A program made the position numbers and the translations under genes. The notes under the pieces are model-generated. The model made no database searches, was not told the DNA's origin, and was given only the letters and a program-made list of their open reading frames with translations. A stretch of 63,728 nucleotides of DNA, counting the filler, from Dugesia japonica (Eukaryota), in the NCBI GenBank assembly GCA_001938525.1. It is 5 parts of 5 records of this genome, joined end to end, with 100 filler letters (N's around TTAATTAATTAA, not from the genome) between each part and the next. Parts side by side here need not be neighbours in the genome. Positions count along the whole stretch, not along the records: positions 16,074 to 29,352 come from MQRL01605959.1; 4 more parts are not named here. The stretch is one strand, 5' to 3'. The first letter of the stretch is position 1, and each line of letters opens with the position of its first letter. Of the stretch, positions 25,020 through 29,104 are shown one piece after another.

Positions 25020-25308
25020 TTTACTTCTTGATTGTGTCTTTTTCTATCTTCGAAACTTGGGTCAGCGTTCGGACCGTTGCGATCAACACGCCTTCTTGAT
25101 CCACATATGACTTGTTAATATCGATCATTGCACGAGATGTCTGTGGTAGTGTGAGGTCTCTTTCTTTTAATAGATTATTCTTTTCCAATAGCGCTATTCT
25201 GTCTTTGTAACTCCAAAATTTCGGCCTGTAATTTCTTGTACATGGAGCACCATTTCTTTAGCAGACCATCCATTGAAGTGCCCGTTGTTATCTTTCTTGC
25301 ATTTGACA
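25020..25308 (-). pseudogene. Unit A cassette 6 (AG|TG start; predicted coiled-coil; stop or frameshift)
   Basis: atttttag|TG TCA AAT gives (M)SNARKITTGTSMDGLLKKWCSMYKKLQAEILE..., continuing in a shifted frame as YKDRIALLEKNNLLKERD. Confidence 0.45.
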
Positions 25309-25599
25309 CTAAAAATTAATGAGAGATATCATATTTGTTTTATGATTATATTTGTAATTTATAATTCGCTTCATGATAAGCTGATAATATGAAACTTTTA
25401 AAATAGTAAACGACAGACATCAGATACTGAATTTATGTTATATTATTAACGAGTTTATCTTTCATAATATTTTGAACTTGTCTGCTATATTATCCGTGAA
25501 CATTTACATTAACAACGAGCATTACTATTATCATTTCTATTCACGAAAAAGAATAAAGAAAAGCATAAGAATGAAACTATATTGACGCTAAACAAACAA

Positions 25600-26439
25600 T
25601 TACACGGCTGTCTCTTTAATGAAATCAGTTTCATCTAACGGTGCAAGCAGTTGATGTAGAATTGTCTCCTTTATGACTTATAATCTCTTGGATAACTTCG
25701 TATACTCTTCGGCTTCCACCTGAGTTGATCGTATCGTCTGGATAACATGCTGATGCTGCTTGACCAACTATGTCTTTCGAGTTAGCAACTTGTTCTTTCT
25801 CCTGCTCCTCCTGCCAAGATTTTAGGTTCTAGAGTCTTCTTTTATATTTTTGCTCTTGTCGGCCCACCTTCTCATGCAGTGTGTCAAGTGTTACTAATTT
25901 CTGTTGTACTTTTTCCTCCTGTTGGGCTATTCCTTTCTTCAGGTCAAGCAGTTGGAGGCTCTTTTGTCGGAGTCGATTCTGTACGATCCACCATGGAACC
26001 GAGAGAGTCCCATAAAACTGGCATGTCATTACATTTATTCGTAGTGAAAGACCATCTTTCTGTCTCCAATGATCACCGTGCCTCCTTTCTCGTTACATAT
26101 ATTGCCATCTAGATGAATATTAATATTGTCGCATGGTTACGTTATATCGCAAAAGCAATTATGTATCAAGATAAATTATTAAGGAGATAATACTTAAGAA
26201 ATACTCTCTCATCACAAACAAGACCTCGATCATTTGTCACTATGGATGGAGTTGGGTTTTCTTCTTTCGTTATCATATATTTTATTTCCATCTTGAATGG
26301 CATCATTCAGAGCACCATGATACCATTACTTTATATTAATGAGCCGTTATTCGTGTATATCATACTTCTTGAAGACCCATCTCCCTCCTGAAAACGAATG
26401 GTCCTCCTGTTCCGAACATTGTCAAAACATGATGTAACA
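25600..26439 (-). pseudogene. Unit A cassette 5 (AG|TG start; decayed; coiled-coil C-terminal part 25829-26029)
   Basis: ttaatttag|TG TTA CAT gives (M)LHHVLTMFGTGGPFVFRREMG. Downstream Q/E/K-rich helical ORF with stops. Confidence 0.4.
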
Positions 26440-27076
26440 CTAAATTAACATTATTAATACAATTTTGTTTAACAAATTATCTGCGTCAAACTATCGTACT
26501 ATATGAACAATAAACATTTTATTATTATCAAGAATCAAAATAATATGTTGATGTAAATTGAAACCAAAAATCGAATTAAAATTTTAATCAACAGTTACAA
26601 TCATAATAATAAAGTAAGATTTAATAAATGACAGGATTCAACCACCACACCTCACTTATCTTTGACATTTCATAAAATTAGATTTGTTTTATCAATTCTA
26701 CTCTCGTTTAATAGTTATGTTTATTTCATTTCGTTCATACTTATAGTTTTAATACACAACGTTTAACTCAAATTTAACTCTCTCATAACTATCACATCTT
26801 GTAAAAATCTTTAACATCATCTTATCAATATAATTGTTGGGGTTTCACCTGAGTTGGATGGTAAGAAAAATATGGCTGAGGGAAAGCAGCCCTCTGGGAA
26901 ACCCGTTCAAGAATTTACCCTGACGTCCCTGGGTCAGGCATTCAGTATATGGTGGTTGACCTCTCTCTTAATGCGAGGTACACGCCCATAAACCTTTTTA
27001 TTCAGGTTCATCATCTTCCCTTAACTTCCACAAAAATTGAAGACAATGATAGTCACAACATTTATTAACATGACAT

Positions 27077-27458
27077 TCATAATTCGTCGAGCACCCCAGG
27101 GTCTAGCCACTGGTCTGGGTCAGGCAGTAAAAAATGGAAGGCCGCGACATCGTCACTGTCGTCCCATTGGACCCAAGCTGGATTACCAATCTCGCGGGAA
27201 AGGTAGGCGATATATTGTTTTAAAAAGTCTATCTTTCTCAACAGTAATTGTTTGTTTTCTGTTTCCAGGGCCTTGGTTTGGGCCACCAAATCGATTTGTT
27301 TTCGAACTATCAAATCAAACTTTTTATAAGTTGGTCTCGCTGGGCAAGATGTCGAAGAAGGGCTCGGTCTGCTTTACGCTTTAAGTGACATTCTAGCAAC
27401 AGCCGGCGCATGATACGATGGCATCTCCGCAAACTAGTCGGAAACACGATATGAGGCA
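27077..27458 (-). pseudogene. Unit A cassette 4 (basic/coiled-coil protein with acidic-aromatic tail; one frameshift)
   Basis: ttctttag|TG CCT gives (M)PHIVFPTSLRRCHRIMRRLL...RKIDFLKQYIAYLSREIGNPAWVQWDDSDDVAAF. Homologous to 43998-44380. AATAAA at 27061-27066. Confidence 0.75.
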
Positions 27459-27576
27459 CTAAAGAAAAATTATAGTTAAGTCGGTGATTACTAAGTTTAC
27501 AATTCAGAGAAAATCAAGTAGAAAATATGCCGATAAATAATTTATTAAAGTTAATCAAAAATATAAACGTGATAAG

Positions 27577-27935
27577 TCAGGAGCGGTTAGTCTGAGTGCC
27601 TTTATCGATCAGGAGGGGAGTCAAAGGTGTAGCTGCTCTCAACTTCAATATATTTTCCGATAGTTGATTCTCACGCTCCTGATATGATGTGATGATTTCC
27701 GTAAAAGTTTCGACCTGTGTTTTCCACACCCGCTCCTGCTTCTGGGTGGCCTCTACTTCAGACTTATAAGCCAGGCATTTCCGTTTATATCGTTTAACCT
27801 TAGCTTCTGCTGTTGCAGTCTCGGCTTCCCACCGCCTTTTGGCGAGTCGATATAGATCCCACGTGAGCTCTATGTCCTCACTGGTTTCCCGTAATTTTTT
27901 ATTCGGGGCCTGAGATCTGTTCAATGATAAATGCA
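27577..27935 (-). CDS. Unit A cassette 3 (coiled-coil protein with C-terminal KxTQT; no genomic ATG)
   Basis: tatttcag|TG CAT opens a 119-codon frame with no internal Met. Homologous to 44516-44883. AATAAA at 27541-27546. Confidence 0.75.
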
Positions 27936-28276
27936 CTGAAATACAAACATATTAAAGACTGGCAGACTCTCAGCAGATTTGTAATTCCAATAAATGAGGA
28001 CACAGTGGCTTACCATAGACAAAAGTAACAATGAGTGGAATATTTAATGTTTATTCTCTGTAACAATCTTACATTGAAATATTATTTTTACTAAACATGA
28101 AGACTAGGAAATCCAATAACATTATTAAGGCAGAAATTTATTTTACTCAACATATAAAGCTATATCGTAAATTAACAGTGAGTAAGCCACCTAATTATTC
28201 ACATTTTACACAGAAATCAGGTTTTATTAGTTTTAATTACTAGTGTCGACACTGGGTGCCATGTTTTCAACATCTA

Positions 28277-28579
28277 TTACTCCGGATGGCTCCCTAACCC
28301 CCCAGAGGAGGTTAGAAATAAAGGTCCGCACAGCGGGAGCTGGGCAGGAGCGGGAGGCTGATATTGAAAGGCTGTGGCCAGGGTTCGGTCAGGGCCCGTC
28401 CAGGTTTGGTACCGCTGACGCTCTCCAAAATCTCGGATACGAGCAACAATAGATTCCACTGGAGGCAAATTGGACCTGTCGGCCAAGACGCCCGCGTCCC
28501 GATTGTGGGGGTTGTGATGACGTCGGAAGATTATTCGACGGGTTCGTCGATCAATTACTCGTTCCCATATAGATTCCAT
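28277..28579 (-). CDS. Unit A cassette 2 (hypothetical protein)
   Basis: tttttcttag-tt-ATG. N-terminal 70 aa homologous to 45045-45473 (W..R..F.R..NP...AGVL..RS.LP.V, W.GP). AATAAA downstream. Confidence 0.7.
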   Translation of the reverse strand: MESIWERVIDRRTRRIIFRRHHNPHNRDAGVLADRSNLPPVESIVARIRDFGERQRYQTWTGPDRTLATAFQYQPPAPAQLPLCGPLFLTSSGGLGSHPE

Positions 28580-28719
28580 AACTAAGAAAAACGGGATAAG
28601 TAATAAAGTTCAAATAAAGCAATTTTGAAATATGAAAAACAATTTAAATTAATAATTGAGAAAACAGCGCAAGATTTTATCCAATTTTATTTTATGATAT
28701 GGGAATCAACCAGGTAAGG

Positions 28720-28902
28720 TCACTCTTTATCTAAATCTACTCCATCGTCCGAGGTGAACATTTCTGCTAGACAGCAAAGATCCATCTCATCCGAGTGTTC
28801 AACTCTTCCCTTAGTCAATAGATGCGCGATCAACTGTTTTACTCGAGCAGTTTGACACTGCCGCTTTATCCATCAAAGAGTGCGACTCAACTTGGTGGGC
28901 AT
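28720..28902 (-). pseudogene. Unit A cassette 1 (60 codons, one in-frame TGA)
   Basis: MPTKLSRTL*WIKRQCQTARVKQLIAHLLTKGRVEHSDEMDLCCLAEMFTSDDGVDLDKE, 34/60 identical by manual count to 45585-45767. Acceptor 3 nt before the ATG. Confidence 0.8.
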
Positions 28903-29090
28903 GAACTAAATAAAAGAAAACTAATTTTAAATTATTACTCGTGATTTCAACTCCTCGAACAGAACCATTATTACCGCTGGGTGTTATTAATAGGGTGACT
29001 CGTCCCAAATGGCCAATCTCTGGGTTGAATAAATGGTTCCTTTGCTTTTCAATAAACGGTTATCTTTACGTTGATAGTAAACCAAATTAC

Positions 29091-29104
29091 TTGATTATTG
29101 TTGG
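29091..29104 (-). other. Predicted 14-nt leader micro-exon ending in A (unit A)
   Basis: aaag|gttaat...ctcag (52-nt intron, 29105-29156), then CCAACAATAATCAA|gtaatt. Confidence 0.4.

Follow-up and report, generated by a model that had tools for sequence, protein, structure and literature searches.

Candidate start codons completed by splicing in two cassettes of a repeated, terminal-repeat-like element of Dugesia japonica

The window analysed here, a stretch of 63,728 nucleotides (nt) from Dugesia japonica (GenBank assembly GCA_001938525.1), is AT-rich eukaryotic DNA with gaps and numerous transposon fragments. It holds two decayed and diverged copies of one repeated element of approximately 4 kb, bounded by TGTTGGGG...CCCCAACA, which we refer to as units A and B. 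In each copy, a TATA box and a leader are followed by four cassettes whose order is the same in both, all on the minus strand. Unit A (leader, cassettes 1 to 4 and 3' end) occupies positions 26835..29352. It lacks its 5' end, which fell within the gap at 29353-29452 or past it, and its 3' end is marked by CCCCAACA at 26835..26842, where read depth falls. Unit B opens with TGTTGGGG at 47832..47839, 660 nt above its TATA box at 47180, and its 3' end is lost at the gap 43846-43945.

All eight cassettes begin below YAG with a T-rich tract above it, and each has its own AATAAA below the stop. In unit A, cassette 1 (28720..28905; AATAAA at 28691) reads AG|TTC ATG and runs for about 60 codons with one in-frame stop, and cassette 2 (28277..28581; AATAAA at 28228) reads AG|TT ATG with 100 codons. 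Cassette 3 of A (27577..27935; AATAAA at 27546) begins CAG|TG and forms one long predicted helix; a check of its 118 codons bore out the statement of a first-pass annotation of this DNA that it lacks methionine altogether. Cassette 4 of A (27077..27458; AATAAA at 27066 and 27002) begins TAG|TG and is frameshifted near 27320. The counterparts in unit B are cassette 1 (45585..45770; AG|CTA ATG, AATAAA at 45550), cassette 2 (45045..45473; AG|ATG, 142 codons, AATAAA at 45031), cassette 3 (44516..44883; CAG|TG, one in-frame stop, AATAAA at 44498) and cassette 4 (43995..44380; TAG|TG, two in-frame stops, AATAAA just below). In-frame stops are thus present in cassette 1 of A and in cassettes 3 and 4 of B. 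Identity between A and B was 55% for cassettes 1 and 3 and 62-70% for cassette 4.

The first-pass annotation had listed six cassette starts of the form AG|TG in two units. AG|TG is present on the minus strand at all six positions (27935, 27458, 26439, 25308, 44883 and 44380), but 26439 and 25308 lie past the end of A at 26835 and have no homologue in B, so that the set consists of two pairs and two unpaired sites. The site at 26439 heads a decayed region outside unit A ("cassette 5", 25631..26439) whose start is not verifiable; the phase-1 frame claimed for it extends over just 25 codons, and a different frame over 35. "Cassette 6" (25021..25308), also outside unit A, reads TAG|TG and then a frameshifted open reading frame (ORF) of about 95 codons. 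As both sites fall past the end of A and a second CCCAACA follows at 24677, they probably derive from another element, and cassette 6 is probably part of a second, related element ending in that CCCAACA. We therefore rejected cassettes 5 and 6 as parts of unit A. The plausible ORF headed by 25308 gives weak independent support for a TG start.

To locate the beginning of coding, the proportions of nonsynonymous (pN) and synonymous (pS) differences were computed codon by codon between unit A and unit B only. As the first-pass annotation had proposed, similarity in cassettes 3 and 4 starts at the junction: ungapped identity between the copies is 25/58 and 26/58 above the acceptor versus 43/58 and 40/58 below it, and pN in the 30 triplets above the acceptors reaches 0.70 and 0.60. 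Within cassettes 1, 3 and 4, pN is 0.20-0.27 and pS 0.81-0.93; the first 60 codons of cassette 2, compared without gaps, give a pN of 0.41. Synonymous sites are saturated between A and B, yet YAG|TG is still kept in cassettes 3 and 4. In cassette 4, the G of TG is retained while 12 of the 15 third positions after it differ at a pN of 0.12, so the codons before the internal methionine at position 17 are under selection. The G is likewise kept in cassette 3, where 72 of 114 third positions differ (3 among the first 12). In-frame stops lie 6-23 codons above the acceptors of these two cassettes. Because coding-type conservation starts after TG and stops lie above, the frame opens with the base immediately above TG: either the G of AG, which gives GTG in unspliced RNA, or a base contributed by another exon.

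In both copies, therefore, cassettes 3 and 4 are ORFs without an ATG of their own at the conserved N-terminus and begin with TG at the acceptor. A G at a free codon position would vary as other third positions do; its retention in both pairs has a chance of approximately 0.12 from the observed rates. By a crude site filter, 32 of 411 acceptor-like sites in positions 1-56000 of the window are followed by TG, and against this background two unrelated cassettes would both start with TG with a probability of about 0.006 if independent. TG, whose variation after the acceptor in other copies would have counted against the reading of the first-pass annotation, is kept in the A and B copies of both cassettes. 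We conclude from these sequence comparisons that the AG|TG start of cassettes 3 and 4 is a real feature under selection. The ATGs of cassettes 1 and 2 lie 3, 3, 2 and 0 nt below AG, and the offset of cassette 2 differs between A and B. An upstream exon common to all cassettes consequently cannot be coding in a fixed phase, and the shared upstream exon is probably non-coding.

Candidates for such an exon were found in both leaders. The putative TATA box of unit A (29298..29303) is the sole TATAAA in 28890-29330. The leader region below it (29091..29297) is free of ATG over the 207 nt between TATA and donor, where 2.8 would be expected (p 0.047), and ends in A before GTAATT, with a predicted 14-nt micro-exon at 29104-29091. 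In unit B, the TATA box and leader region (46777..47180) end in A before GTAAGC, with a predicted 18-nt micro-exon at 46794-46777; two ATGs occur in 374 nt (6.2 expected), at 46976 and 46864, and are closed by a stop or in phase 2. The A|GTAATT at 29091 and the A|GTAAGC at 46777 are thus present as first described, but the micro-exons are predictions and the two leaders do not align, so that the two donors are matched by position and shape only. They are the best sites above cassette 1, ranking third of 68 GT sites in A and second of 118 in B by a rough score of our own. A|GTAATT works as a donor in D. japonica, where it bounds the intron at 21261-21305 of a 14-3-3 gene, with more than 1300 spliced reads in each of three RNA runs. 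We give about even odds that the sites at 29091 and 46777 are the donors actually used.

We propose that a TATA-driven and likely non-coding leader would be cis-spliced to one of the four cassettes and that, for cassettes 3 and 4, the last base A of the leader would join the first bases TG of the cassette to form ATG. An A|TG start made by splicing is our best reading of these two cassettes, with a probability of roughly 70%. The first-pass annotation had held that the start exists only in spliced mRNA; the comparison of A and B supports A|TG for cassettes 3 and 4, and we infer the splicing itself and the exact donors. The split start may serve to prevent the synthesis of two helical proteins from RNA that is unspliced or read through. 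The first-pass annotation went on to infer that translation is confined to the selected cassette, which gives the split too large a role: the choice of acceptor and the poly(A) signal that each cassette has to itself would suffice for the selection, and ordinary ATGs serve cassettes 1 and 2.

Several observations weigh against an A|TG start. Internal methionines occur at codon 17 in cassette 4, where the residue is conserved, and at codon 15 in cassette 3 of B. Just two copies are readable base by base, both of them broken, the leaders fail to align, and the donor score is our own weighting. A pyrimidine at -3 of an ATG is a weak start context by the usual rule, and the assembled ATG would have T (in A) or C (in B) at that position. 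Another A|GTAA site, which aligns in both copies, lies within cassette 2, 18-21 nt from its start (28558 and 45455, minus strand, phase 0). Finally, no junction read was found among the joints listed (15 of 93) in three raw RNA runs, and depth was 0 in the leader and acceptor bins of A.

These three runs are from the same organism, from a strain approximately 2% apart, and the reads used make up 6%, 25% and 25% of them. Both 14-3-3 introns were spliced in all three, the first in 1320, 1962 and 2687 reads, and depth over the eight bins of unit A between 27032 and 29350 was 0 to 0.59. The repeated element is close to silent in these samples. LTR elements become de-repressed when piwi is knocked down (PMC8532177). 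A run search listed 24 runs, one containing the stretch and none on record as an RNA run that contains it; 8 of the 24 were compared, with the part of the window that includes unit A. Contig runs X13, X15 and X17 held 2, 0 and 2 short pieces on unit A, which have no bearing on expression, and no leader-cassette link was seen in contig runs among the joints listed (15 of 17).

Other sources of the start codon were weighed against the same evidence. A short coding exon with its own ATG could be spliced in phase 1 to cassettes 3 and 4, giving both a common N-terminus and leaving TG as an ordinary codon remainder. Such an exon is the commonest arrangement, and part of the 5' end of A, where one might lie, falls in a gap. 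The env genes of ZAM and Beagle, spliced to a short upstream peptide, offer a precedent (bioRxiv 10.1101/2023.08.03.551782, in the portion available). Phase-1 donor-like sites with an open ATG do occur in single copies, for example at 45673 in cassette 1 of B and at 28558 in A. None of the 16 best-scoring donors of each copy, however, has a phase-1 counterpart with an open ATG at the matching place in the other, and 45673 has no GT in A; the shared N-terminal coding exon that the first-pass annotation named as its alternative thus found no conserved candidate. The local ATG|gtaagc near 28015, which it had also considered as an upstream exon, was rejected (donor at 28013), being in phase 0 and without a counterpart in B. 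A coding exon would moreover leave unexplained both the fixation of TG at saturated third positions in two unrelated cassettes and the free ATG offsets of cassettes 1 and 2, and we regard it as unlikely. The A of an A|TG start might instead come from another donor, such as the A|GTAA in cassette 2 (28558, 45455), which would be a variant of our own proposal. This site is the best-scoring donor in B and the fifth in A and aligns with a 3-nt gap, but it lies behind the ATG of cassette 2, which ribosomes would have to pass, and its GTA may simply be a valine codon; we consider its use improbable.

There is also a small chance that no A is supplied, and that translation starts at GTG in unspliced RNA, formed by the acceptor-like G and TG, or at an internal methionine. 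All four homologous sites have G-TG in frame, and GTG can support weak initiation according to the part of PMC13392007 available to us. A GTG start would need neither YAG nor a T-rich tract, yet both accompany every cassette start in A and B. The methionine at codon 17 of cassette 4 is present in both copies, but the 15 codons above it are under selection, and cassette 3 of A has no methionine. Least probable, and by our estimate very doubtful, is an operon resolved by spliced-leader trans-splicing in which a flatworm leader provides AUG. The recurrence of poly(A) signal, short T-rich spacer and acceptor does recall an operon, in-frame AGs occur a few codons into cassette 3, and the flatworm spliced leaders reported in the consulted part of PMC12582326 end in ATG. 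At the AG|TG sites of cassettes 3 and 4, however, such a leader would open just 4, 4, 21 and 15 codons, in agreement with the first-pass remark that it would be out of frame; its AUG is neither in frame with these cassettes nor upstream of a cassette ATG there. The inner AGs of cassette 3 are placed differently in A and B, and their use would lose conserved first codons.

We infer from its ends and its dispersal that the element carrying these cassettes is probably a long terminal repeat (LTR) belonging to a large retrotransposon. LTRs end in TG...CA. Two occurrences of TGTTGGGG lie in the window, against 0.30 expected (5 of 100 shuffles reached two): one starts unit B at 47839 and the other, inverted, ends unit A at 26835. 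The element thus has TG...CA ends with a short inverted repeat, the two ends coming from different copies; with gaps in both A and B, the two ends never stand within one copy for target-site comparison. Inspection by eye beside the two ends revealed no primer site or polypurine tract, which fits lone LTRs. Many dispersed copies exist. In run X1, possibly the source sample, summed contig depth, which is not a true copy number, was 391-3301 over cassettes 1-4 versus about 11 for a host gene; it was 5142 in the leader bin and 15698 over 26741-27031, and only 40-84 over 24995-26740. Run X14 showed the same depth pattern, with 459 contigs on the unit A region; because these cover the spacers too, the run behaves as DNA. 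Two X14 contigs join 26921-26997 to cassette 4 and one joins cassette 2 to the acceptor of cassette 3, so that the orders cassette 2-cassette 3 and cassette 4-end are kept in other genomic copies. Another contig matches cassette 6 as far as its acceptor. Numerous contigs match just the TATA-proximal 40-60 nt (29287-29325) and diverge on both sides; the promoter core around TATA is common to more families than the leader is.

Two other arrangements of the element were rejected. Units A and B are not the two LTRs of one element, being too diverged, with codon-biased divergence and host genes between them. Nor is the carrier a Polinton/Maverick, an element with AG-ended long terminal inverted repeats and genes for polymerase, integrase, ATPase or capsid, since the unit ends are TG...CA and polymerase-B and ATPase-like fragments lie outside both units. 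In the outer 690 nt of unit B, the cassette strand alone carries TATA and AATAAA motifs, a pattern that favours cassettes running in the LTR's own sense. We think it somewhat more likely than not that they do so, as short, early-terminated transcripts beside a full-length read-through RNA. The alternative of an antisense unit, whose introns would more readily survive reverse transcription, is less likely.

Decayed gypsy-type pol fragments lie past the promoter end of both units, on the strand opposite to them (29729-30958 and 50347-51379, both plus strand), the former including a Pfam rve match at 30332-30586 (E 3.5e-5). Just outside the start of unit B, 48100-48262 (minus strand) shows AGTAGTG and then a GC-rich stretch. 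This may be a Maverick end into which unit B inserted; no partner for it was found within the window.

Relatives of the cassette proteins were sought in several collections. None was found for cassettes 2, 3 and 4 in protein collections compared at near lengths only, and a profile search with cassette 4 gave one match at E 1e-3 that looks unrelated. Pfam returned only weak coiled-coil matches under the cut-offs, and nothing for cassette 1. No relatives were found in phage records, viral contigs, prokaryote genomes or metagenomes. One candidate locus, L001, was rejected as a chance match of 15 residues that lay out of frame with an ORF of bacterial type. Matches of 0.80 and 0.82 for cassette proteins in an atlas are leads only. 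The model of cassette 3, predicted from a two-sequence alignment, is one helix of about 90 residues (residues 11-101); a regulatory, dimerising role for this predicted protein is a guess.

The remainder of the window provides the setting. The 14-3-3 gene (20928-21809, plus strand) is highly expressed, its introns of 45 and 47 nt are confirmed by reads, and numerous reads start at 20932-20937, just below its first ATG. No Rfam match was obtained in 22500-49000, and no tRNA genes were found. A perfect inverted duplication of 298 nt (23961-24258 and 26001-26298) reflects a recent rearrangement or an assembly artefact. A repeat of very high copy with internal repeats, at 24122-24994, reaches a depth of up to 15355 in X1 and has a little RNA. 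The single-copy frame of 72 codons at 23334-23549 (minus strand) lies below an acceptor-like site, is followed by AATAAA and is perhaps an old cassette of a related element; comparison with the cassettes and Pfam showed no similarity for it. Fragments of protein-primed type DNA polymerase B at 33755-34494 (minus strand; PF03175, E 1e-6 for 34255-34494) are Polinton-like and unlinked to the units. Back to back lie a TBP-like fragment (17522-17686, minus strand; PF00352, E 0.001) and a Pox_A32/FtsK-like ATPase fragment (18055-18234, plus strand; E 0.007), both under the cut-off; the pair possibly represents the remains of a Polinton-like element in which a TBP-like gene was present. A satellite of 17-bp units, about 380 copies, fills 56094-63728.

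A broader proposal, which we advance tentatively, is that an LTR family of giant retrotransposons carries an adenovirus-like unit in which the A of one non-coding leader completes the start codons of several unrelated genes. This rule would have been kept across lineages saturated at silent sites and reused by a second element (25308), and the proteins would come from spliced, early-terminated RNA only, never from genomic RNA. If true, this would be a natural, selected case in which several genes share a single exon base as their start switch, and a retrotransposon end would contain a spliced unit of several genes. Annotation that relies on ATG would miss genes of this kind, which may be why protein collections gave no relative. 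The proposal would also raise the question of how an element that is copied by way of RNA retains its introns and its four poly(A) signals.

A split start codon is in itself already known. In the open-access literature, as far as the accessible text extends, we found no natural case in which a single leader ending in A completes several alternative genes. Nor is there a description of units A and B in the accessible parts of PMC6431247, PMC11410931, PMC13524379, PMC8532177, PMC5887285 and 10.64898/2025.12.11.693146. The planarian giant gypsy-like elements Burro/GYPSM1 are present in thousands of copies, exceed 30 kb with LTRs versus a 25-kb interior, and have accessory ORFs (PMC6431247, in part). 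Their LTRs must accordingly measure kilobases; no genes inside the LTR are described in the part seen, and our units were compared with them by description only. Drosophila MDG1-group elements have small accessory ORFs, sORF1 and sORF2, near the gypsy-type 5' end, with an early poly(A) site that yields a short transcript (PMC11952523, available portion). Unlike units A and B, these are two unspliced ORFs between LTR and gag.

In adomavirus and adenovirus late units, a multi-exon leader is spliced to acceptors immediately above a row of genes (bioRxiv 10.1101/341131, partial text), a layout that cassettes 1 and 2 resemble. The viral late genes have their own ATG and belong to free DNA viruses, and the likeness seen here is one of layout. 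In the engineered RisdiON switch, an exon ending in A and an exon starting with TG initiate translation in mammalian cells (PMC13392007, same portion as above). That is exactly the A|TG proposed here, but RisdiON is synthetic, drug-controlled and limited to one gene. EBNA-LP of Epstein-Barr virus (EBV) obtains its AUG when a promoter exon (C2 or W0) is spliced to acceptor W1', according to the section available of bioRxiv 10.1101/2025.04.23.648900. There, RNA evidence shows acceptor choice switching a single protein on or off; in units A and B, several separate terminal genes would take their start from one leader. Comparable in kind is env of the springer subclade of Drosophila errantiviruses, likewise an LTR retroelement gene with a splice-completed start codon (bioRxiv 10.1101/2023.08.03.551782, in the same excerpt). 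In springer the codon is divided AU|G, in one gene of the internal region; in D. japonica it would be divided A|TG, in at least two alternative small genes inside a terminal-repeat-like unit. The candidate starts of cassettes 3 and 4 would likely work in the manner of springer env or EBNA-LP.

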